A stretch of DNA of 64,000 bases from Candidatus Spongiisociaceae bacterium (lineage in GTDB: Bacteria > Actinomycetota > Acidimicrobiia > Spongiisociales > Spongiisociaceae). The position numbers and the translations under genes are program-made. Each line of letters begins with the position of its first letter. Position 1 is the stretch's first letter. The DNA is taken from positions 768,001-832,000 of the forward strand of contig OZ253564.1 of NCBI GenBank assembly GCA_965262915.1. The letters run 5' to 3'. This document shows, one piece after another, positions 1-63,687 of the stretch. Below the pieces are notes generated by a model. That model had not been told where the DNA came from. It did not search any database and saw only the letters and a list, made by a program, of their open reading frames with translations.

Positions 1-2460
1 TACACGCCAACGAAATGCTGCTGTTGGCCTACTCCATCGCCGCCGTCAAAATCGAAGAAGGACGGCGCCAACGCCGACCCACAGCGACTACCAGCCATTC
101 GCAGGCATCGTCCTGTGCGACACGTTCAACAGCCAACCCGACCAGCAACAGCTCGACACCCTGTCAGGCAACAGCCGACGGGCCGAACAACAAGCCGGCC
201 AACGCATCGACGTCATAGTCGGGAACCCGCCCTGGTCCGCAGGACAGAGAACCGCCGCCGAGGACAACCCCAACATCGTGTACCCACAACTGCGGGAACG
301 CATCCGCGAACCCTACGCGGCGCGCAGCACCGTTACGTTGAAGGCGGCCTTGTACGATTCGTACAAGCTGGCGATCCGGTGGGCCACCGACCGCATCGGC
401 GACCAAGGCATCGTCGCGTTCGTCACCCCCAACTCGGTGCTCGACGGCAACGCCGAATCCGGGCTCAGAGCCTGCCTAGCCGACGAATACCACAGCCTGT
501 ACCTACTCAACCTACGCGGCGACGCCCGCCTCTCCGGCGAAGCCAGGAGGCGGGAAAAGGGCAACGTCTTCGGCAGCAGCACGAGGGTGGGCATACTCGT
601 ATCCGTACTGGTCAAACACCCCCACCAGCCACATCCCGACCGCCAGACCCGCATCTGGTACCACAACATCGGCGACTACCTCACCACAGACCAGAAAAAA
701 CAGGCCCTCCAAGACATGGGGCATGCGCCGACGAGCGGCGACGGGGAAGGCTGGCAACGGATCAAACCCGACAGCAACCACGACTGGATCAACCAATCCG
801 ACCCCACCTGGCAACACCTAATGCCCCTCGGGGACAAGACCACCAAACAGGCAGCCCTGCGCGGGTCGGCTGGATCGGGCGCTGACTCCCCGACTGTGTT
901 CCACATCTACTCGTCCGGCCTCAAGACCAATCGCGACCCATATGTGTACGACTACGACAAGGACGGTCTGGAAGAACGGGCCGAAGCAATGGTCGACGAA
1001 TACGAACACCAACGCGACCGTGTGAGCACCGGGGAGGCGACGGTCGACCAAGCCACCCGAAACGTCAGACCACATGTCATCAAATGGACGGGTGACCTGC
1101 GACCACGGCTACGACGCGGCCTGCGCGCCACCTACGACGAACGGAACATTCGGGAAGTCCACTACCGGCCGTTCACCAAGATGTGGCTCTACTACGAACC
1201 GCTGTTCCTCAACAGGGTCTACCGCATCCCCATCATGTTCCCTCACCGTCCCGACGGCGCGAACCAGGCGATAGTCGTAGCGGGGAGGGGATCGACCCGT
1301 GAGTTCTCGACGGTGGTGACGGACACAGCACCGGACCTGGAGCTGGTGTCCAAAGGTCAGGTGATGCCAAGAACCACCCATCATAATCCGACCGACCGAC
1401 CGACCGACCGACCGACCGACCGACCGACCGACCGACCGATCAGGTCATCTACATCACCGGGCCGGGAGCATCGGTCGGGTTCTCAACACTCGTCAGCGAC
1501 TGTCCCCCGGACCTGCATCTGCTGTCAGGCGGACAAGCGTTCCCCCGATACACCCACCCGACCGGATGAATCAGGTGATCAGCATGACCGGACCAGGCTG
1601 GAAAGGCCCCTTCTCGACGCTGATAAGCGACATCCCTCCGGACATCCAGTTCATGGGCAACGGTCAGGCGTTCCCCCGGTACACGTATCCGAAGGAGACC
1701 AGCCGATGACCGCCGGCACTACTCCGATGCTGGACTTGGGGGACCTAGACCCCACCGGCGACCGGCCCGACGACCAAGGCCGGGTGGACAACATCACCGA
1801 CTGGTGCCTCAACCAGTTCCGCAGCCGCTACCAGGACCCTGCCATCACCAAAGACCACATCTGGGCATACATATACGGAGTGATGCACGCCCCCGACTGG
1901 CGAACCAGATACGCGAACGATCTACGCAAAGGTCTACCCCGCATCCCCTACACCGACGACTTCTGGCCGTTCGCCCAGGCGGGCCGGGAGCTGATCGACC
2001 TACACGTCGGCTACGAAACCTGCGAACCGTATCCGCATGTGCGAGTGCTGGTAGACGGGCAGGCGGCCGACCCGGACCGTGACAGCCCCGACGTGTACCG
2101 TATCGATAAGCCGATACGCTGGGCCAGAACCCGCGGCGAAGACAGGAAACTCGCCAACGACCTGAGCGTGCTCGTGGTCAACGACCGGTGCCGAATCGAA
2201 GACATCCCCCCGGAAGCGCACGAGTATGTGGTCAACGGGAAAACCCCCCGCTCGGCTGGGCCATCGACCGTCTACGGGCTACCCGTGACAAAACGAGCGG
2301 GATCACCCGCGACCCGAACCGGTGGCACACCTGGGCAGACCGGCCCTACAACCTGATCGAACACCTATGTAGGCTGATCACCGTGTCCGTCCGCACCGTC
2401 CGCATCGTCGACGGGTTGCCCCCCTCGCTGCCCCCAGACGACCCACGCCCCGCCGGCTGA
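1..2460 (+). CDS. Type ISP (LlaGI/LlaBIII-like) restriction-modification enzyme, MTase to C-terminal part; runs off the left edge, with frameshifts near 80 and 2245
   Basis: HANEMLLLAYSIAAVKIE, then in a shifted frame DYQPFAGIVLCDTF and the amino-MTase motif IVGNPPW. Also SSGLKTNRDPYVY, YRPFTKMWLY, ITKDHIWAYIYGVMHAPDWRTRYANDLRKGLPRIP and YVVNGKT/PLGWAIDR, all typical of Type ISP enzymes. Confidence 0.88.
1388..1439 (+). repeat. (CCGA)13 simple sequence repeat inside the Type ISP gene
   Basis: 13 perfect CCGA units counted; read as (PTDR)n in the main frame. Confidence 0.97.
1438..1569 (+). other. Alternative ISP specificity-region cassette 2 (currently out of frame)
   Basis: DQVIYITGPGASVGFSTLVSDCPPDLHLLSGGQAFPRYTHPTG*, homologous to in-frame cassette 1 NQAIVVAGRGSTREFSTVVTDTAPDLELVSKGQVMPRTTH (1262-1381). 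Confidence 0.85.
1566..1709 (+). CDS. 47-aa mini-ORF, alternative ISP specificity-region cassette 3
   Basis: MNQVISMTGPGWKGPFSTLISDIPPDIQFMGNGQAFPRYTYPKETSR*. Its ATG overlaps the cassette 2 TGA and its TGA overlaps the next ATG at 1706. Confidence 0.75.
   Translation: MNQVISMTGPGWKGPFSTLISDIPPDIQFMGNGQAFPRYTYPKETSR
1706..2460 (+). CDS. Type ISP C-terminal domain with its own start; frameshift in the C-run near 2245
   Basis: SD AAGGAG at 1692-1697, ATG at 1706, ISP C-terminal motifs follow. Confidence 0.65.
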
Positions 2461-2684: not shown

Positions 2685-4373
2685 ATGAGACGGTTGGCGC
2701 TACTGGTCGCATGGGTGCTGGTGCTCGGAACAGTCGCGTCGGGAGCGTTACCGTCCACGCCACCCGCGGTGGCGCAGGAGACAACCGGGCCGCCGGAAAT
2801 ATGCGACACAGCCGCGGTGGAACAATTCACCGACGTCGCCGACGGTGAATACGCGTCCGCCTACGTGCTGTGCATGCGCTCTCTGGGCCTCTCGGTGGGA
2901 AGAGGAGCAGGAACCTACGGTCCTGACAGCCAACTCAACCGCGGGCAGATGGCATCATTTCTGGTGCGGCTGTGGCGTGACGTGCTGGGCAACCAATGTC
3001 CCACCGGAGTAGTCACGCCGTTCACCGACGTGCTCGACGACTCCACGCATACCAAGAACATCGAATGCATCTACGGACTGGAGATCACCACCGGCACCGG
3101 CCCCGACACCTACGGCCCCAGGGACCCGCTGAAGGCAACCCAGATCTCCCGATTCCTGTACCGCGTCTACAACAAAGCCGGCGGCGACATGTGCCCGAGC
3201 GCAGACGGGTCGGAACTCCACCGGGCCGCAGAGTGCCTGCTCCAACTCCGGGTCGTGCCCACCACCGGCGAAGCCACCGCCACCACCACCGTCACCCGAG
3301 CACAAATGGCCGTCTACATGGTAGGGCTATGGCACAACCTCTCAGGCAAAGGCCTACCACCCCCACCCCCACCCCTAGGCACCCCCACACCTGAGGCGAC
3401 CACCACCACTACTACCCAACCCACCCACACCGCACCCACCACCCAACGCATCGCCTACACGGTCAACAGATCCACAGCACTTGATCGCGTGCGGGGAGTC
3501 ACGACCACTGACGTCTGGGTTATGAACGCCGACGGAACCGACCAGAAACAACTCACCGACAACGGCTGGGGTCCGGTGTGGTCACCTGACGGAACCCGAA
3601 TCGCCTACACCGGCAGGCGCCTGACGGGCTCCAGAATCAGACCAAACCAGATCAATGAGGTCTGGGTTATGAACGCGGACGGAACCGACCAGAAACAACT
3701 CACCGACAACGGCTGGGGTCCGGTGTGGTCACCTGACGGAACCCGAATCGCCTACACAGTCGGACTCCGCGGAATCTTACGCGGAGTCCGGGTTATGAAC
3801 GCGGACGGAACCGACCAGAAACAACTCACCGACAACGGCATGAGTCCGGTGTGGTCACCTGACGGAACCCGAATCGCCTACGTAGCCCTCGGCCCGGACA
3901 CCGGAGTCCCGACCACTGAGGTCTGGGTTATGGACGCCGACGGAACCGACCAGAAACAACTCACCATCGGCGAGATCTCGGGGTCGTTTCTTCTGTCGTG
4001 GTCGCCTGATGGAACCCGAATCGCCTACCCAGGGGCAAACGGAGTCTGGGTCATGAACGCGGACGGAACCGACCAGAAACAACTCACCGACAACGGCTGG
4101 CGTCCGGTGTGGTCACCTGATGGAACCCGAATCGCCTACTCTAGGGCAAACGGAGTCTGGGTTATGAACGCGGACGGAACCGACCAGAAACAACTCACCG
4201 ACATCGGCCAGAGTCCGGTGTGGTCACCTGACTCTGGCCGAATCGCCTACTCTGGGAGCGGAGTCTGGGTCATGAACGCGGACGGAACCGACCGGAAACT
4301 GCTCTACTACAACCGCACCGCCGGGGATGGCGCGGGTCCGGTGTGGTCGCCCGTGGTCGTGCCGGAGGGTTAA
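2685..4373 (+). CDS. Secreted S-layer-homology protein with a TolB/PD40 beta-propeller
   Basis: Signal peptide, SLH-like motifs (FTDV...RGQMASFLVR, TRAQMAVY), Pro/Thr linker, seven VWVMNADGTDQKQLT...VWSP repeats. Confidence 0.85.
   Translation: MRRLALLVAWVLVLGTVASGALPSTPPAVAQETTGPPEICDTAAVEQFTDVADGEYASAYVLCMRSLGLSVGRGAGTYGPDSQLNRGQMASFLVRLWRDVLGNQCPTGVVTPFTDVLDDSTHTKNIECIYGLEITTGTGPDTYGPRDPLKATQISRFLYRVYNKAGGDMCPSADGSELHRAAECLLQLRVVPTTGEATATTTVTRAQMAVYMVGLWHNLSGKGLPPPPPPLGTPTPEATTTTTTQPTHTAPTTQRIAYTVNRSTALDRVRGVTTTDVWVMNADGTDQKQLTDNGWGPVWSPDGTRIAYTGRRLTGSRIRPNQINEVWVMNADGTDQKQLTDNGWGPVWSPDGTRIAYTVGLRGILRGVRVMNADGTDQKQLTDNGMSPVWSPDGTRIAYVALGPDTGVPTTEVWVMDADGTDQKQLTIGEISGSFLLSWSPDGTRIAYPGANGVWVMNADGTDQKQLTDNGWRPVWSPDGTRIAYSRANGVWVMNADGTDQKQLTDIGQSPVWSPDSGRIAYSGSGVWVMNADGTDRKLLYYNRTAGDGAGPVWSPVVVPEG
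3513..4352 (+). repeat. Seven near-identical coding repeats (PD40 blades)
   Basis: Recurring gtctgggttatgaacgcggacggaaccgaccagaaacaactcacc...ccggtgtggtcacctga, separated by variable-length inserts. Confidence 0.92.
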
Positions 4374-7144: not shown

Positions 7145-9172
7145 TCAGCCGCTAGCGGTCGGTTCGGATGTGAGGTCGAGAGCCCGTACCAGGAAGGTTG
7201 CCATCTGTCCCCGGGTCACAGCCTGGTGCGGGCAGTAACGTAACGGATCGGTCTTACATCCCATGGTCACGCCGACCGCGACCAGAGCATCGATGTTGGC
7301 CTCGTGGGTGTTACCCGCCGTATCCGCGAACCCCGCCGAAGGCGCAGGCGGCAGATCGAAAGCCCGAACCAGGAACGTCGCCATCTGCGCCCGGGTAACC
7401 GGCTTGTCCGGGCAGTACCGCAACGGATCGGTCTTGCATCCCTCAGACACACCAAGATCCCCAAGACGCTCCACATAGCCCACCCACCAAGCATCGGGAT
7501 CCACATCCGCGAACCGCGTCCGCGCATCGGAAGACACGGGAGCCTGACCGAGGACCCGGGTCATCCACACCGCCATGGCCCAACGCTCGATCGGCTCATC
7601 AGGGCAGATACGCCGCTCACCACACTCGGTACCTTCGAGGACACCCGCCGCCGCGAGCCGGTTGATCGACGGTTCGCGAACACCGCCGTCGTCGTCGAAG
7701 CTGTCCGGTTCGGCGGGTTGGTCAGGTTTCTCCCCGTCGTTGCCGTGGCCCGGGGTGGGATCCTCCGGATCGTCAGCCGGGGGAGGGGCCACACCATCGA
7801 TGGCGGTGATGTTGGAGGACCTGAGACCCAGGCCGGTCCGTAACTGGGCCCCGGCGACGGTCACCGACGCGGGTTCACCACCGCGGACACCGCGGAACAT
7901 GACATGTGCGGGTGAGGACAGGGACTCTGTAGCTACCAAGATCGCGTCGGTGACCTCCTCCCAGCCCAGCCAACGCGCGACAGCCGAGGCGCTTACCCGG
8001 CGGTCCCAAGAAGCGTTCGGGTTGCCCACCCCCGGGTCGACGTCCCAGGGGTCCTCGACCGGCGTCAGATACGGCCACTCGCGTCCTGGTGTTTTGCCGT
8101 TCCACTCGGTGAAGAACCCGTAAACGTTGCTTCGGGTGATCCCACCGGACGACGCGGAGAAGAACGCCTGGACGATCCCCGCCTTCGTGAACGTCTCCCA
8201 CTCGTCGCCGAAGTAGGTGAGAACCCGGTCCCTGGTGGTTTCCACGCCGTCGAGCCAGGGCTGCCCACCCGACCGGGTCTCCTTTGCCCAACCTATGTAG
8301 TTCATGTCCCGCCAGCTGTCGTAGAGATGGCACCAGCATCTGTCCTTGCGGGCGGCGCTGATCCCCGGATCGTCGTCGGGATCAGCGGGACGCGGCTCGG
8401 TTTCCCACTGGAAGAACTTGAAGGCTGCGTACGAGCGGGCCGTGACGGCCTGGGCCTCGTTGACTCCTGCCGCCTCCCAGTCGTCGGGGATTTCGGCAGT
8501 ACCCTTGAGGTAGTCCTCGAGTCCGATCGCCAGGACCACGTGGAATCCTGTCTCTACCGGGTCGTCTCGTATCTTCAGTTCCCCGTGACGGTATTCGCAC
8601 ACCTCGTTGCTCCGAGGTGCGCACAGCTTGTTCCTTTCCTCACCGTGACGGAGCCGGACACCCTTGGCGTCTGGCCAGGAAATAGCCGCTCGGCAGCCAC
8701 CTGCCGTTCCCTGGAGCTCACCACCACGGAAGAAGCCGCACTCGTTGCGGGCCATGCGCCGGAACTCCCACCTCTCACCAGCCTGCGGATGCTCCGGCTT
8801 CGGGCAGGGACCCTCGTCGTCGCCCACCAGACACAGATCCAACGGACCTCCTACGGCGGTGAACTCCAACAAGGTGATCTGGGACCCCAAATTGACCCAC
8901 AGTGGGTTATCCAGCGTATACAACAGATCATTGGGAAGGGGCAGGTCCCGCATCGTCGCCGGTTCCGAGCCCGGGAAGTAATAGGCGGCGACATCCTCAC
9001 CCGGCTTGGCCGGATCGGCAAGCGCCTGCCCGTAGGCGCCCCACTGGCCCATACCAACACCATGACCCGAACCCGCGCCCTCGAAAACGAAACCGCCGCT
9101 ACCTTGAGCATCAGCGGCAACAGCAGGAACCAGGCCCACCAGAACCGCCACGAGCAACAACCGCCGGAGCAC
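7145..9172 (-). CDS. SpoIID/LytB-domain protein with C-terminal SLH domains
   Basis: Signal peptide, GSGHGVGMGQWGA, EDYLKG..E, AQAVTARSYA, FSASSGG; SLH repeats with TRAQMATFLVR. Confidence 0.88.
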   Translation of the reverse strand: MLRRLLLVAVLVGLVPAVAADAQGSGGFVFEGAGSGHGVGMGQWGAYGQALADPAKPGEDVAAYYFPGSEPATMRDLPLPNDLLYTLDNPLWVNLGSQITLLEFTAVGGPLDLCLVGDDEGPCPKPEHPQAGERWEFRRMARNECGFFRGGELQGTAGGCRAAISWPDAKGVRLRHGEERNKLCAPRSNEVCEYRHGELKIRDDPVETGFHVVLAIGLEDYLKGTAEIPDDWEAAGVNEAQAVTARSYAAFKFFQWETEPRPADPDDDPGISAARKDRCWCHLYDSWRDMNYIGWAKETRSGGQPWLDGVETTRDRVLTYFGDEWETFTKAGIVQAFFSASSGGITRSNVYGFFTEWNGKTPGREWPYLTPVEDPWDVDPGVGNPNASWDRRVSASAVARWLGWEEVTDAILVATESLSSPAHVMFRGVRGGEPASVTVAGAQLRTGLGLRSSNITAIDGVAPPPADDPEDPTPGHGNDGEKPDQPAEPDSFDDDGGVREPSINRLAAAGVLEGTECGERRICPDEPIERWAMAVWMTRVLGQAPVSSDARTRFADVDPDAWWVGYVERLGDLGVSEGCKTDPLRYCPDKPVTRAQMATFLVRAFDLPPAPSAGFADTAGNTHEANIDALVAVGVTMGCKTDPLRYCPHQAVTRGQMATFLVRALDLTSEPTASG

Positions 9173-9358
9173 CCGAGGATTGTAGAAGCCACCCGTCAGC
9201 AATCTGAACACCAACCTTCGACGTCGACGAACCCGAACTCCCGACACCCCGACCACCCAACACGCCACCCCGGTGGGAAACCTCTGACGGTGACCCGGGT
9301 TCGGTGGAGTCACTCCAGTCTGCCGATGTACGCGGACGAACCTTGGTGTCGGGAGGAA

Positions 9359-59697: not shown

Positions 59698-60447
59698 CTA
59701 CTCCGGAAGAGTCCAGCCGAATTCCCTGACGTAGCCGCTGGAGTCCGCTCCGATCCGGGTGTCGTCCAGCCGTCCGGCTTCCTCGAGGGCTATCTGGATC
59801 GGCACCGGCGTTCCCAGCCTGGTGCTGCCGGCCTCGACCATCTCGATAGCGTCGGCCAGGGTAAGGATGTCGGGCGAGGCGGCCTTGACCTCGATGTGGT
59901 CGGGCAGAGCGGCCCGCATCGCCTTTACCTGCGCCACCGTGCCGCCCCCGTACACCGACAGGCCGGTAGATGTCTTGCCGAAGTCGGCGCCCGACTCGAC
60001 TACCACCCGGCAGGCGTCCTCCAGCTTCCCGGGGATCTGCTCCATCTCCGGGGACTCGATGATTGCCTTGGTGATGACAGCCGGGTTCTCGGACTTGGCC
60101 GCCTCCACCACCGCTGCCGCGTCACGGATGGCGGCGTCGAGGTCACCGTAGAGGATCGCCGACCATGCGGCCAGGAAGTCGATCTCGATGGCACCCGACG
60201 CCACGCATTCCTTTGTCGCGGCCACCTTGGCTGCGGTTCCTTCCAGCCCGATCGGCATGCTGACTATCCCGGAGGTTGCGACCCGGTCGCCCATCCGCCT
60301 CGCCACCCGCTCGACCCACCAGGGATACACGCAGAAGGCGGCAACGCCCAGCTCGACGCACTCGTCGGCCATCCGGTCGAGCGTGTCGGGCCCGGCCCTC
60401 GGATCAATGCACACCTGGTCCAGCATCTCGGTGATTCGCCTAGTCAA
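59698..60447 (-). CDS. deoC: Deoxyribose-phosphate aldolase (divergent)
   Basis: CVYP, PIG, GAIEID, KAIIE, GADFGKTSTG, VKAA, RLGT. Confidence 0.82.
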   Translation of the reverse strand: MTRRITEMLDQVCIDPRAGPDTLDRMADECVELGVAAFCVYPWWVERVARRMGDRVATSGIVSMPIGLEGTAAKVAATKECVASGAIEIDFLAAWSAILYGDLDAAIRDAAAVVEAAKSENPAVITKAIIESPEMEQIPGKLEDACRVVVESGADFGKTSTGLSVYGGGTVAQVKAMRAALPDHIEVKAASPDILTLADAIEMVEAGSTRLGTPVPIQIALEEAGRLDDTRIGADSSGYVREFGWTLPE

Positions 60448-60570: not shown

Positions 60571-60654
60571 CACCCGGCACCCGGCACCCGGCACCCGACA
60601 CCCGACACCCGACACCCGACACCCGACACCCGACACCTAACACCTAACACCTGA
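60571..60654. repeat. Intergenic heptamer tandem array, 12 units
   Basis: (CACCCGG)3(CACCCGA)6(CACCTAA)2(CACCTGA). Confidence 0.95.
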
Positions 60655-60661
60655 CCCCCGG

Positions 60662-63010
60662 CTAGAGATCGCCGTTGGCGGCAAGCGCGAGCAGCGCGCT
60701 GTTGACCACCTGGTCCGCCTGGAGGCCGAACCGGTCGTACAACTCCTGGATGGTTCCCGACTCACCGAAGTCATCGACCCCTAAGGGGACCACCCGTTGC
60801 CCGTAGACGGATCCCAGCCAGGCCATCGCGTGCGAGGCGGCATCGTGCACGGTGACGATCGGGGCGCGCCGGAGTTGCGGGGGGATGAGTGCGGCCAAGT
60901 GGTGCTCGTCCACCGGCCGCCTTAGCTGCGACCGGGACTCGCGGAGGGTGCGGATCCAGCCGGTGTACAGGCGGTCGAGGCTGGTGAGCGAGAGCACCGA
61001 GGCACCGACACCTTCGGCCTCCAGCTCGTCCGCTGCGGCCAGGACTTCGGGCATGACCGACCCGCTCCCGGCCATGATCACGGGAACCAGGGTCGGGTCG
61101 GCCGGTGCTCGCAGCCGGTAGCCCCCGGCCACCACGTCGGCATGCAGGCGGTCCTCTCCTACCGATTCCAAGATCTCCCGGAAAGGTGCCTGGTCGATGG
61201 GCCGGGTGCCGAGGCGCAGGTAGGAGATGGCGCCGTCCGGGTCGGAGAGGCGGTGGAGGGCGTCGATGAGCAGCCATTCGAGCTCCTGGGCGTAGGCTGG
61301 TTCGGCGAACTCCACCCCCGGCAACTCCATCCCCACGGACGGGGTGATAGTCGACTGGTGGGCGCCGCCCTCTGGGGCCAGCGTGACCCCGGAGGGAGTG
61401 CCCACCACCACGAAGCGGCTGCCGTTGTAGGTGCCGTAGACGAAGGCGTCGAGGCCGCGGAGGACGAAGGGGTCGTAGACGGTGCCGATCGGCAGCAGCA
61501 TCTCGCCGTGGTGGTCATGCGAGAGACCCAACTGGCCGAGCAGCATGAACAGGTTCATCTCCGAGATTCCCAACTCTACGTGGTGGCCGTCGGGTCCCGG
61601 TTTCCAGCGCAGCAGCGTCTCGGCTGCCGAGTAGTCGGGCCGGTACTCGGGCGAGAAGACTCCGGCCTTGTTGATCCAGCCGCCCAGGTTGGTCGATATG
61701 GCTACGTCCGGGGATGCAGTCACCAGCCGCTCGGCCACTCCCTCGACGCCGGCAAGCCGTACCAGCACCCTCCCGAAAGCGTCCTGGGTCGATACCGGCC
61801 TGGCCGTTGCCCCGGCATGGGCGAACGTCCCGACCGTGGCGGGAAGGGGCAGCGCGGGTCGGGGCGGTGTGGGGAGGTTGTTGATCTCGCTCCCTACCCA
61901 CTCGCACAGCCGTCCGGCGGGAGTGTCGGGATCGAACCGATCCCATTCGGTCTCGGGGCTCAGCCCCGTGCGGGCGCGGAGATCATCGATCTGGATCCGG
62001 GTGAGGAGGGCCGCATGGTTGAGCGGATCGCCGGCGAAGGGCAGACCGTATCCCTTGACGGTGTAGGCGAACACGATACTGGGACGATCGGGCTCGGCGT
62101 CGCAGGCCCGGAAGCACCTGACCAGTTCCACCAGGTCATGTCCGCCGAGGTCGTGAACGACCGACGGGAGATCCTCGTCCCTCACCCCGGCGATGGTTTC
62201 CGCCACACCCCTGGCAGCGCCCTCCAGGAAGTGATCCCGCAGTTCGGAGCCACTCAGCCGGAAGAGGCTCTGGTAGTGCTCGTTGGACATACCGTCGATG
62301 TGGCGGCGCAACACCATGCCACCCGGGCGGTCGAAGAGTCCCTGGATGCGCCGCCCGTACTTGGCCTGGGTGACGTGCCAGCCGGCTGCTGCGAAAGCAT
62401 TGACCATCCGGCCCACCGCTATGTCCGGAACCACCCGGTCGAGGCTCTGGCGGTTGGCGTCCACCACCAGCATCACGTTGCCCAAGCCGGCCAGGGCCGG
62501 CTCGACTATCGCCTCCCAGACATTTCCCTCGTCCAGTTCCGCGTCGCCCACCAGCGCTATGAAGCGGGCCGGGTCCTGGGAGCCGAACTTGGTCTCGACG
62601 TAGCGGCGGGTGGCCGCCGAGAACAGCGGCGCCACCGCACCCAGGCCTACCGAGCCGGTCGAGAAGTCGGCCACGTCTGGATCCTTGGTCCGGGACGGAT
62701 AGGCCTGCAACCCGCCCAGGCGTCGCAGTCGAGTGAGATACGAGCGGTCCAACTCGCCGGTCAGATACTTGATGGCGTGGTACACGGGGGAGGCGTGGGG
62801 TTTGACGGCCACCTTGTCGTTGCCGCCGATATGGCTGAACCACAGAGCGGTCATGACCGACACCAGGGATGCGGACGAAGCCTGGTGTCCTCCCACCTTG
62901 ATCTCGGTGCTGCTGTCCCGGTTGACGTGGTCGACCATCCTTACAGCCAGCCAGAGCACCCGCTGTTCTATCTGTTTGAGCGTTTTCTCATCGACAGCAG
63001 GAAGCGTCAT
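60662..63010 (-). CDS. AceE-like pyruvate/2-oxoacid dehydrogenase E1 (transketolase-like ThDP enzyme)
   Basis: KVGGHQASSAS, LQAYPS, STGSVGLG, GDAELDEGN, ELGISEMN, PEGGAHQS. Confidence 0.88.
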   Translation of the reverse strand: MTLPAVDEKTLKQIEQRVLWLAVRMVDHVNRDSSTEIKVGGHQASSASLVSVMTALWFSHIGGNDKVAVKPHASPVYHAIKYLTGELDRSYLTRLRRLGGLQAYPSRTKDPDVADFSTGSVGLGAVAPLFSAATRRYVETKFGSQDPARFIALVGDAELDEGNVWEAIVEPALAGLGNVMLVVDANRQSLDRVVPDIAVGRMVNAFAAAGWHVTQAKYGRRIQGLFDRPGGMVLRRHIDGMSNEHYQSLFRLSGSELRDHFLEGAARGVAETIAGVRDEDLPSVVHDLGGHDLVELVRCFRACDAEPDRPSIVFAYTVKGYGLPFAGDPLNHAALLTRIQIDDLRARTGLSPETEWDRFDPDTPAGRLCEWVGSEINNLPTPPRPALPLPATVGTFAHAGATARPVSTQDAFGRVLVRLAGVEGVAERLVTASPDVAISTNLGGWINKAGVFSPEYRPDYSAAETLLRWKPGPDGHHVELGISEMNLFMLLGQLGLSHDHHGEMLLPIGTVYDPFVLRGLDAFVYGTYNGSRFVVVGTPSGVTLAPEGGAHQSTITPSVGMELPGVEFAEPAYAQELEWLLIDALHRLSDPDGAISYLRLGTRPIDQAPFREILESVGEDRLHADVVAGGYRLRAPADPTLVPVIMAGSGSVMPEVLAAADELEAEGVGASVLSLTSLDRLYTGWIRTLRESRSQLRRPVDEHHLAALIPPQLRRAPIVTVHDAASHAMAWLGSVYGQRVVPLGVDDFGESGTIQELYDRFGLQADQVVNSALLALAANGDL

Positions 63011-63687
63011 CACTGATCGGCGATGTAGGAGACGTAGATACGCCTGATGTCTCTGGCCGAGAGAATCATGCGATGAACCTCATCCGGAACCTCGGAAAGG
63101 TTGCCCTCAGTATCGAATATTGCTAGAGGCTTATCAAGGATAATATCACGGTTCGGATTGTCGTCAGGATCCGTATTGAACCAGGCTAGGTTGCCAGATA
63201 TGTAGCTTCTATCGTGTAGCTCACAGATGACAAAACGGACGGATAAATTCTTAGGTACATTAGCTTCGAAGGCATAATACCACCCGGACGTCTCAGCAAA
63301 GGCAGGAGCGAGGACTGGTGATAGGTAGCTAAGCGGCCATAGTTTATGTGCAAGGGCTGATAGTATGGAAGCACTGGATAGTAGGCCAATCAGCCAGGCA
63401 GTAACGTATAGGAGCCGCGAGTCGTCCAGTAGAATGTATGCATTCGGATCCCGTATCAAATGCGAGAGACTGGGAGAGTGGTCACTGACCAGTGGGATTA
63501 GCCGTACTACACCGTAGAAAACCAGTATTGTAGTATTGGCGACCGCGGCAACGACTATGAGTCCTGCTGCCTCCATTGTTCGAGATAACCGCCGTGTCGG
63601 AAAGCGCCGTTTCCTGAGGACGTAGTGAACATAACCAGGGATGAAAATGAGGATTGTTATCAGCAGCCCAGTCAGCGAACTAGGCAA
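63010..63687 (-). CDS. DUF6338-like membrane protein (lower GC)
   Basis: FIPGY, three TM helices, SGWYYAF..YISG....NRDIIL; TGATG overlap with the E1 gene. Confidence 0.65.
   Translation of the reverse strand: MPSSLTGLLITILIFIPGYVHYVLRKRRFPTRRLSRTMEAAGLIVVAAVANTTILVFYGVVRLIPLVSDHSPSLSHLIRDPNAYILLDDSRLLYVTAWLIGLLSSASILSALAHKLWPLSYLSPVLAPAFAETSGWYYAFEANVPKNLSVRFVICELHDRSYISGNLAWFNTDPDDNPNRDIILDKPLAIFDTEGNLSEVPDEVHRMILSARDIRRIYVSYIADQ

Follow-up and report, generated by a model that had tools for sequence, protein, structure and literature searches.

A decayed Type ISP restriction-modification gene, probably from a lineage that chooses its DNA-reading loop by means of a slippery repeat

The stretch of DNA considered here (hereafter the window: 64,000 nucleotides, G000:C1:768001-832000, from a Candidatus Spongiisociaceae genome, G000, which is assembled as one contig of 5,055,038 bases with 64.4% G+C) opens inside a gene of the Type ISP restriction-modification (R-M) family. 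In its frame-2 translation the Pfam profile Type_ISP_C (PF18135) is matched with an E-value of 7.9e-78, in two stretches about 120 residues apart and with one more interruption near position 2244; a weaker match is that to the Eco57I methylase profile (E 5.5e-07), and the NPPW motif is present (GNPPWSAG). The long upstream open reading frame (ORF), which we call the trunk, contains a tandem repeat of a four-base unit, and around this repeat lie three short homologous segments, or cassettes, one in each reading frame. We regard it as probable that the gene, although itself decayed, comes from a lineage that chooses its DNA-reading loop by means of such a repeat: slippage in a tract whose unit is not a triplet would select among alternative cassettes, each encoding the omega-hairpin and Loop VI of the target recognition domain (TRD), that stand in different frames.

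The repeat was delimited by Tandem Repeats Finder as (CCGA)13.0 with 100% matches; it lies inside the trunk ORF, between cassettes 1 and 2, and its unit length is not a multiple of 3. The cassettes are 42 residues long. Translation from 1262 in frame 2 gives NQAIVVAGRGSTREFSTVVTDTAPDLELVSKGQVMPRTTHHN, followed by PTDR repeats (cassette 1); from 1438 in frame 1 it gives DQVIYITGPGASVGFSTLVSDCPPDLHLLSGGQAFPRYTHPTG (cassette 2), and from 1566 in frame 3 MNQVISMTGPGWKGPFSTLISDIPPDIQFMGNGQAFPRYTYPKETSR (cassette 3). That these are homologous modules in different frames had been proposed by a first-pass annotation made from the letters alone, and both the translations and a hidden Markov model (HMM) of the cassette agree with it. 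The HMM gives E-values from 1e-24 to 2e-29 for the individual window copies, which places their homology beyond chance.

The frame logic described by the same annotation also stands. No stop occurs in any of the three frames from the repeat (1440) to 1566, and frame 3 is open from 1365 to 1706. With the present 13 units the frame-2 ORF passes cassettes 2 and 3 out of frame and continues into the C-terminal domain, remaining open to 2356. With 14 units it should read cassette 2 and then stop, and this is exactly what a natural 14-unit allele does in a related genome, G005 (see below); with 12 or 15 units it should reach cassette 3 and stop at 1709. The last two outcomes are not to be read as simple truncations. 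The ORF does stop there, but both downstream stops overlap an ATG, in the form of ATGA at 1566-1569 (between cassettes 2 and 3) and at 1706-1709 (between cassette 3 and the remainder of the domain, TRD-C), and TRD-C is a separate ORF joined by the second of these overlaps. The features are collected in Table 1.

Table 1. Features of the Type ISP locus, in window coordinates
Feature	Position	Strand	Remarks and basis
Type ISP R-M pseudogene, 3' two-thirds	1..2460	+	remnant begins about 1090 bases before the window; helicase C part, coupler, N6-adenine methyltransferase, TRD
Private 1-base deletion, frame 3 to frame 2 in the methyltransferase	76..80	+	between the DPFTGTG motif and NPPW (about 225-236); DNA alignment with G006 and G005
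Cassette 1, frame 2, in the trunk ORF	1262..1387	+	omega-hairpin and Loop VI, E at the base-reading position; cassette HMM, alignment
(CCGA)13, read as PTDR in frame 2	1388..1439	+	proposed frame selector; Tandem Repeats Finder
Cassette 2, frame 1	1438..1569	+	H at the base-reading position; TGA 1567-1569 overlaps the cassette 3 ATG; cassette HMM, pN/pS
Cassette 3, frame 3, 47-codon ORF	1566..1709	+	Q at the base-reading position; TGA 1707-1709 overlaps the TRD-C ATG; cassette HMM, alignment
AAGGAG, Shine-Dalgarno-like hexamer	1692..1697	+	8 bases 5' of ATG 1706; sequence; also in G005, G006, G042
TRD-C ORF: remaining TRD core and guide subdomain	1706..2460	+	frame 2 to about 2244, frame 1 to TGA 2458-2460; Pfam Type_ISP_C profile 163-302, E 1.2e-41
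Private 2-base insertion (C4 to C6) interrupting the TRD-C ORF	2240..2246	+	alignment with G006 and G017

What the cassettes encode can be read from solved structures. In a phmmer search the best match is PDB 7lo5 (E 1.8e-74), which we take to be the Type IIL enzyme DrdV, followed by LlaGI (5ffj, E 7.4e-72) and LlaBIII (4xqk, E 7.6e-53). Cassette 3 aligns to LlaBIII residues 1335-1376 and to LlaGI chain positions 1178-1220, and cassette 1 does likewise; in 7lo5 the corresponding residues are 777-818. According to the structural description of Kulkarni et al. (2016, PMC4872093), the TRD core of LlaGI and LlaBIII has a conserved beta-hairpin with an omega loop (1347-1358) and a Loop VI (1365-1374); H1368 of LlaGI and N1360 of LlaBIII are positionally equivalent and both read the base at target position +3, and G1372-Q1373 of LlaGI contact the other strand. 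Because the cassettes align to that stretch of the two enzymes, we identify the cassette, by homology, as the omega-hairpin plus Loop VI of a Type ISP TRD, in accordance with the first-pass annotation, which had placed it in the target-recognition region of LlaGI/LlaBIII-type enzymes and had suggested that its variable residues be mapped onto them. In our alignment N1360 of LlaBIII falls on the residue after the cassette's PD(L/I), and counting from H1368 puts G1372-Q1373 on the conserved GQ. In the H1368 column the window cassettes 1, 2 and 3 have E, H and Q, and all three retain GQ; it seems reasonable to suppose that they would specify different bases.

How far the layout is conserved was judged from orthologs. 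Searching the 692-residue translation in 41 related genomes gave matches in 16, G000 included; 15 of the 24 others from the same family were among them and 0 of the 16 from other families of the order. A stricter search of 29 genomes of the family found close relatives in five, namely G000, G005, G006, G017 and G042. In G005, from the same genus as G000, the repeat is (CCGA)14, all three cassettes are present, and the frame runs from cassette 1 into cassette 2 and then stops; this copy also has a TAG and a frameshift. G006, again of the same genus, has (CCGA)21, cassette 1 and a single 2/3 hybrid that arose by a deletion between a shared GGACAAGCGTTCCCCCG stretch; its bypass frame is open for 1744 codons from stop to stop and gives a 1730-residue protein in which Pfam finds Mrr_cat_2 (E 8e-18), ResIII, Helicase_C, ISP_coupler, Eco57I/N6_Mtase and Type_ISP_C. 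G017 belongs to another genus (81% amino acid identity). There the repeat is (GCAGAGGG)3, three cassettes and the ATGA overlaps are retained, and the gene is in the bypass frame with one in-frame TGA. Finally, in G042, from the genus of G017, a (CT)n tract of at least 25 units is found at both of the contig ends where the assembly is broken; the repeat follows the trunk directly, cassette 1 is absent, and cassettes 2 and 3 are present with their ATGA overlaps. The window copy itself, with its 13 units and three cassettes, is in the bypass frame.

What the orthologs do not keep is the repeat at this junction. G000, G005 and G006 represent three species; aligned to each other, they show 0 gap columns over 400 bases on the 5' side of the tract and 120 bases on its 3' side, while the tract itself has 13, 14 and 21 units. 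Besides the CCGA, GCAGAGGG and CT tracts, a fourth repeat type is seen in a metagenome contig (L165, positions 1-123): the contig starts inside a (CAGC) tract, of which about 30 units are left, and continues with near-identical cassettes 2 and 3 and TRD-C. The junction is thus occupied by no fewer than four non-triplet repeats that are unrelated to one another, from which we argue that the repeat itself is under selection. Contig L165 was found by scanning metagenomes with a 17-base pattern of the junction; among the matches listed (at least 120 stretches) it was the only one with cassettes, and the other 119 look like chance.

More distant relatives carry larger arrays. Other Type ISP-like loci of the family have 5-7 cassettes at the 3' end of a trunk ORF of 1400-1680 residues; in these arrays all three frames are used, a stop follows each cassette, and the cassettes are grouped behind G/C runs of 9-18 bases or behind (GA)n. 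The locus L027 (minus strand, 8429-9285) illustrates this organization. It has seven cassettes and three G runs about 250 bases apart, and behind each run stand two cassettes, of which one is in the +1 and the other in the +2 frame, with the third frame open to the next run. Judged from its frame layout, L027 is the module of the window (repeat, cassette 2, cassette 3, open third frame) in three repetitions.

For a systematic survey, one genome per species was scanned with an alignment of the trunk just 5' of the arrays, which gave 79 related loci. A first cassette HMM built from the window cassettes alone missed most cassettes of the related arrays, and it was rebuilt with 13 added seeds; loci L064 and L090 were left out of alignment A2. 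Three to seven cassettes are found in 73 of the 79 loci (three in 16, four in 9, five in 32, six in 6 and seven in 10); the rest have two (3 loci), one (1) or none (2, both cut by contig ends). The repeats in these arrays include G/C runs of 9-37 bases, GA, CA, TC, GGTC, CGAA, ACCG and CCGA. If frame changes are allowed at the repeats only, 326 of 344 cassettes are reached from the trunk frame and end in a stop (74 loci, as five of the 79 had fewer than two cassettes or no long trunk frame), against a mean of 194 with random switch points, and every cassette is reached in 64 of the 74. Depending on the genome, the trunk ORF currently ends in cassette 1, 2, 3, 4, 5 or 7.

The cassettes of one array are also all different. 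Among 76 arrays there is none in which an 8-residue loop occurs in two cassettes, and each cassette type occurs once per locus (the types are greedy clusters; single-linkage clustering merged most of them). The residue equivalent to H1368 hardly varies within a type (A in 27/27, H in 15/15 and C in 15/15, for instance) and differs between types; over 354 cassettes it is H in 147, C in 84, A in 50, N in 27, S in 21 and K in 19. By their titles, the metagenome-assembled genomes (MAGs) that hold these loci are mostly Acidimicrobiia (Candidatus Spongiisociaceae, Poriferisodalis, Poriferisodalaceae, Poriferisocius, Aldehydirespirator, Hopanoidivorans), together with Caldilineaceae, Thermodesulfobacteriota, Longimicrobiales and Dehalococcoidia. 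The occurrence in sponge-associated MAG families of several phyla suggests horizontal spread among co-resident symbionts.

A few individual loci may be recorded here. Array loci with 3-7 Loop VI cassettes and 1-5 repeats are L026, L027, L028-L039 and L045-L123; L026 holds three array loci in tandem, with 16 cassettes in total. G005 has, besides its ortholog, a fused paralog of 1626 residues (L040, minus strand, about 2369-2508) with a single cassette-2-like cassette followed by (C)13, read as PPPP, before the C-terminal half; by its layout it looks like a simple fused-versus-truncated switch. In G006, fragments of a second array with four partial or whole cassettes lie 5' of a divergent TRD-C gene (L029:3921-4289, plus strand) and may be the remains of a neighbouring locus.

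A comparison of substitutions can indicate in which frame a cassette is coding. Between G000 and G017, cassette 1 differs by 13 synonymous and 3 non-synonymous changes, so that the ratio of non-synonymous to synonymous change (pN/pS) is 0.08 in its own frame and 2.0 and 4.9 in the others. For cassette 2, which the 13-unit allele does not read, the counts are 10 and 1 and the ratio 0.04 in its own frame, against 1.7 in the bypass frame and 4.1 in the third. The same holds for the related arrays: when cassettes of the same type were paired between genomes, both members lying outside the trunk ORF (137 pairs), pN/pS was 0.26 in the own frame versus 1.23 and 2.47 in the other two. In both G000 and G017, cassette 2 has zero stops in all frames and cassette 3 has zero in its own frame and the bypass frame. 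The off-frames of cassette 1, which need not be read through, contain 4 and 2 stops. From these patterns the cassettes appear to be coding in their own frames, and the multi-cassette design appears to be selected.

The arrays further indicate where the recognition domain is divided. Their trunks match positions 6-116 of the Type_ISP_C profile, a neighbouring ORF of 224-261 residues (TRD-C) matches positions 163-340, and the cassette fills the gap between the two; Mrr_cat_2 is found in the L027 trunk as well. The TRD-C ORF lies just 5' of the trunk, divergent from it, or directly after the array, and in the 11 loci of the last kind that were inspected it overlaps the stop of the last cassette through ATGA in 7, does so via a second in-frame ATG in 1, and is separated by a short gap in 3. 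The window ORF that starts at 1706 begins like these free-standing proteins (M..LDLGDL...DNITDW). Programmed ribosomal frameshifting at the ATGA junctions was also considered, but no X XXY YYZ heptamer was seen there in the sequence, and the overlaps fit termination-reinitiation.

Whether the two parts could associate was addressed by complex prediction for a natural pair from the genome G015, consisting of the 595 C-terminal residues of a trunk whose ORF terminates in its first cassette, together with a TRD-C of 241 residues, both entered as alignments. The scores were 0.88, 0.86 and 0.88, against 0.00 for the best control; the mark applied to such predictions was reached by 58 of 80 solved complexes and by 2 of 110 mismatched pairs. 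The runs share at least 90% of contacts, the predicted local distance difference test (pLDDT) of the partner is at least 85, and the interface includes trunk residues 554-595, that is, the cassette. The prediction supports docking of TRD-C on the cassette, with the proviso that the domain was solved as a single chain in LlaGI and LlaBIII, so the score may reflect that likeness. An AlphaFold2 model of the methyltransferase-TRD part of G006 (881 residues) has a mean pLDDT of 51.7 and is confident only at about 660-870 (TRD-C), which is too poor for cassette 1 or the linker.

Put together, these data can be accommodated by the following mechanism. Slipped-strand mispairing would alter the length of the tract and, with it, which of the three frames the trunk ORF continues in. 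The trunk, which comprises nuclease, helicase, coupler and methyltransferase as well as the first half of the TRD, would end in a different cassette in each frame. When the number of units is 1 modulo 3 (as 13), the product would have cassette 1 only, a junk linker of about 90-100 residues and an in-frame fusion to TRD-C. When it is 2 modulo 3 (14, as in G005), cassette 1 would be followed by a PTDR linker, cassette 2 and the stop, and when it is 0 modulo 3, by junk, cassette 3 and the stop. Where the trunk stops after cassette 2 or 3, TRD-C would be translated separately, either through reinitiation at ATGA or with the help of a ribosome-binding site of its own, and would then dock on the cassette; the sub-lineage of the window would have the alternative of fusing it through the bypass frame. 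We further suppose that in the stop states the downstream cassette displaces cassette 1, and that the assembled domain then recognises another base at the one or more positions which Loop VI contacts. The cassettes are not alike at the residue with which LlaGI and LlaBIII read a base, and we therefore expect the target that is recognised, methylated and restricted to differ at one or two positions from state to state.

Two further points of the first-pass annotation have to be modified. It spoke of three specificity cassettes and a three-state switch; three states there are, but cassette 1 lies upstream of the repeat and is therefore translated in every form, so that the choice is cassette 1 alone, 1 plus 2, or 1 plus 3. 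It also held that repeat length picks among three protein forms, and possibly three specificities, without a recombinase; the comparative evidence favours this as a design of the gene family, but it does not apply to the copy in the window, which is a pseudogene.

Going from the window to the whole set of arrays requires a bolder proposal, to which we incline only slightly more than to its denial. Sponge-symbiont bacteria (mostly Acidimicrobiia, plus the Caldilineaceae, Thermodesulfobacteriota, Longimicrobiales and Dehalococcoidia MAGs) would share a heritable, multi-state switch of Type ISP specificity, built as a frameshift 'decision tree' with between one and five hypermutable repeats. At each repeat two frames would end in a different Loop VI cassette and a stop, and the third would run on to the next repeat, yielding three to seven enzymes per gene with no recombinase. 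The rest of the TRD would be a separate subunit, and the window would hold a relic of a three-state version.

The plainest alternative is ordinary ON/OFF phase variation: 13 units would give the full-length enzyme, other lengths a truncated and inactive one, and cassettes 2 and 3 would be functionless leftovers of tandem duplication. ON/OFF switching by repeats is, in the accounts published on R-M genes, the usual case. Moreover, the fused bypass frame is found in G006, the only ortholog that is intact, as well as in G000 and G017, two of the three that are broken but assembled across the locus, and the paralog L040, with one cassette directly before its (C)13, resembles such a switch; the open off-frames at the window locus are not improbable by chance either. 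Nevertheless, we consider this explanation unlikely. It does not account for purifying selection on cassette 2 in its own frame rather than in the bypass frame, nor for the like on out-of-trunk cassettes of the related arrays. Leftovers would not remain stop-free, unique in type, ordered and 95% repeat-reachable over 74 loci, and the stops of the cassettes overlap ATGs that open the next ORF.

Slippage might instead be non-heritable, with RNA polymerase or ribosomes slipping on the repeat, so that one allele yields a mixture of isoforms and a pool of several specificities in each cell. A preprint of 2026 (10.64898/2026.04.01.715767) reports frame-dependent suppression of frameshifts at (AG)n in a Type III mod gene, and long G/C runs of 9-37 bases are present in many related arrays. 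In place of slippage at the DNA level we find this quite improbable, given that tract lengths differ heritably between genomes and that the trunk ORF ends in different cassettes; transcriptional or translational slippage could act alongside DNA slippage.

Another alternative treats the downstream cassettes as silent donors, as with pilins, which would enter the expressed cassette by homologous recombination or gene conversion and would not be read by frameshift. The 2/3 hybrid of G006 was indeed made by a deletion between direct repeats, and the conserved scaffold codons common to the cassettes could support recombination. However, a deletion between direct repeats is irreversible, and silent donors need neither an open path from the repeat, nor a stop after each copy, nor a spread over three frames, nor hypermutable repeats, all of which are found; the turnover of repeats at the junction also points to selection on the repeat itself. 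We judge this explanation very unlikely. That frames and repeat length are merely errors of long-read assembly is hardly credible: the gene does carry frameshifts, one of them in a C run, and short-read contigs do not span the repeat, but the three-frame layout recurs in G005, G017, G042, L165 and 73 of the 79 related loci, and contigs of the sequencing runs X1 and X2 (possibly the same sample) match the window at 2244 as well as before and after the repeat. The first-pass annotation had itself named such an artefact, an invariant repeat, and stops in the downstream cassettes of relatives as possible objections; recurrence counters the first, and we find 13, 14 and 21 units and a cassette 2 free of stops in G017.

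A switch that selects the Loop VI cassette by repeat length remains the reading that we prefer, and the points that weigh against it are best stated together. The first is the condition of the window copy. With the intact 1730-residue G006 ortholog as tblastn query, only its residues 578-1730 are matched in the whole G000 genome (766911-770457, in three frames), so the nuclease and most of the helicase have been lost; a counterpart of residues 1-577, the Mrr-family nuclease included, is missing from the whole genome by this search. The retained part, from residue 578 on, shows 92.7% identity and, going by the position of the Pfam domains in the ortholog, would cover the end of Helicase_C and the coupler region. 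Two frameshifts private to the window copy, near 78 and near 2244, interrupt the methyltransferase and TRD-C; the first, a 1-base deletion, parts NPPW from the upstream half of the methyltransferase, leaving that domain in more than one frame. At 2244 the contigs of runs X5 and X9 have 2 bases fewer, and those of X1 and X2, runs possibly from the source sample, match the window. By all these signs the window copy is a pseudogene, unable to act, and as the gene is dead in this genome, the switch here is a relic. The first-pass annotation had missed the truncation and the frameshifts, as well as the ATGA overlaps, the homology of TRD-C to free-standing small proteins and the presence of cassette 1 in every form. 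Since G006 alone is intact among the four orthologs assembled across the locus (G017 and G005 being interrupted as described), the three-cassette sub-lineage may be decaying. Upstream of the truncated gene lies a TnpB-like ORF of 503 codons (OrfB_IS605 plus Cas12f1-like TNB; L017:8522-10030, about -4478 to -2970 in window coordinates), which may be linked to the loss of the 5' part of the gene.

Other difficulties concern the mechanism. With cassette 1 placed before the repeat, the predicted products of two of the three states contain two coexisting cassettes. Reinitiation at ATGA in the stop states is a postulated step, and the AAGGAG hexamer of the window, G005, G006 and G042 is absent in G017. 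The change in specificity is deduced from an alignment to two solved enzymes. The open off-frames at the window locus are unremarkable when synonymous codons are resampled: both off-frames of cassette 2 are open with a P of about 0.18, the bypass frame of cassette 3 with one of 0.46, and the two together at about 0.18 x 0.46. Since they are not significant we have dropped the argument from openness for this locus. For cassette 3 the comparison of G000 and G017 gives 2 synonymous and 2 non-synonymous changes (pN/pS 0.28), and as just 4 of 127 bases differ, its own frame is not singled out. As for the survey, the cassette HMM was built from the same loci whose cassettes it defined, and the compared genomes are kin, so the array counts are descriptive and not independent tests.

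Variation of repeat length within a population was not seen, in material that consisted of contigs only, most of which break at the repeat. The stretch is present in 22 sequencing runs as assembled contigs, of which those of X1, X2, X5 and X9 were aligned to the window. Those of X1, X2 and X9 break off before the repeat, at 1381 or 1375, and are found again from 1447; the X5 contig crosses the site and is 20 bases shorter over 1151-1606, the exact place of the gap within that span not being visible. The runs that contain the window stretch include sponge and coral metagenomes.

Elsewhere in the window, a 562-residue ORF at 2685-4373 encodes an SLH domain and PD40 beta-propeller repeats, with DNA tandem repeats of 111-273 bases at 3513-4299. 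A heptanucleotide repeat, CACCCGA, is found at 60571-60660 (12.9 copies, 92% matches), between the stop of a 783-residue ORF (minus strand, 60662-63013) and the start of a 249-residue ORF (minus strand, 59698-60447); it could be a promoter-region repeat.

If a repeat-driven choice of Loop VI is confirmed, it would be a compact way, free of recombinases, to diversify defence and methylation patterns within a population. It would also mean that two chains, divided after Loop VI, can together form the recognition domain of a Type ISP enzyme. Engineering of specificity has been called an unaccomplished challenge (Kulkarni et al. 2016, PMC4872093), and the arrays would offer for this purpose a natural table of Loop VI variants against target bases. 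For annotators there is a warning, as such genes resemble frameshifted pseudogenes trailed by many tiny ORFs. The local copy being a relic, the high interest lies in the family-wide pattern.

Repeat-driven phase variation of R-M genes is well known, the truncation of the NgoAV hsdS product being one example. The phasevarions (Type III mod, Type I hsdM/hsdS, Type IIG) share with the present genes slipped-strand mispairing in a non-triplet repeat within an ORF and a stochastic, reversible change of product; as they are generally described, the outcome is ON/OFF or a truncated subunit, whereas here each frame leads to a different conserved recognition cassette. The multi-hsdS Type I loci, as surveyed by Atack et al. 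(2020, PMC7394358), likewise have several recognition modules at one locus and a multi-state switch, but there a recombinase and inverted repeats swap whole TRDs, and here a 40-residue loop segment would be chosen by frame with no recombinase. LlaGI and LlaBIII (PDB 5ffj and 4xqk; PMC4872093) have the same domain order (Mrr nuclease, SF2 helicase, coupler, gamma-class N6-adenine methyltransferase, TRD). In the account of their structures each is a single polypeptide with one Loop VI and no internal repeat, in contrast to the multiplication of Loop VI behind a repeat and the split of the TRD after Loop VI that we describe. The enzyme of 7lo5, a solved adenine-specific DNA methyltransferase and the best sequence match in the structural database, differs in having no helicase, a single cassette and a fused TRD.

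Multi-frame cassette arrays, whether in Type ISP genes or elsewhere among R-M genes, did not turn up in the literature searched. Repeat-driven ON/OFF switching of R-M genes and a toggle between two specificities in two Helicobacter pylori enzymes are already known; the multi-frame choice of cassettes looks undescribed. The closest precedent is this two-state H. pylori switch in Type IIG enzymes. In JHP1272 (Hpy99XIV) and HP1353-HP1354 (HpyAXVI), a homopolymer adds a small TRD-like C-terminal domain, with the result that two positions of the methylated motif are altered (Krebes et al. 2014, PMC3936762). There are, as reported for that system, two states, one homopolymer, and a piece at the very C-terminus of a complete TRD. 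The present genes have three states, and three to seven in the relatives with up to 3-5 repeats, with all three frames in use; the insertion lies in the middle of the TRD, the remainder of which is a separate or fused TRD-C, and the enzyme is a helicase-driven Type ISP one, known here from sequence alone. The likeness is nevertheless close. Both systems have, towards the 3' end of a fused R-M gene, a repeat that governs the translation of an extra TRD-like segment, and, as in the Hpy99XIV type, the segment in the alternative frame is homologous to the part of the TRD that reads bases, cassettes 2 and 3 being homologous to cassette 1 and to Loop VI of LlaGI and LlaBIII. The extra segment in H. 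pylori has been proposed to displace the resident one, which parallels the pairing of cassette 1 with cassette 2 or 3 in the genes described here.

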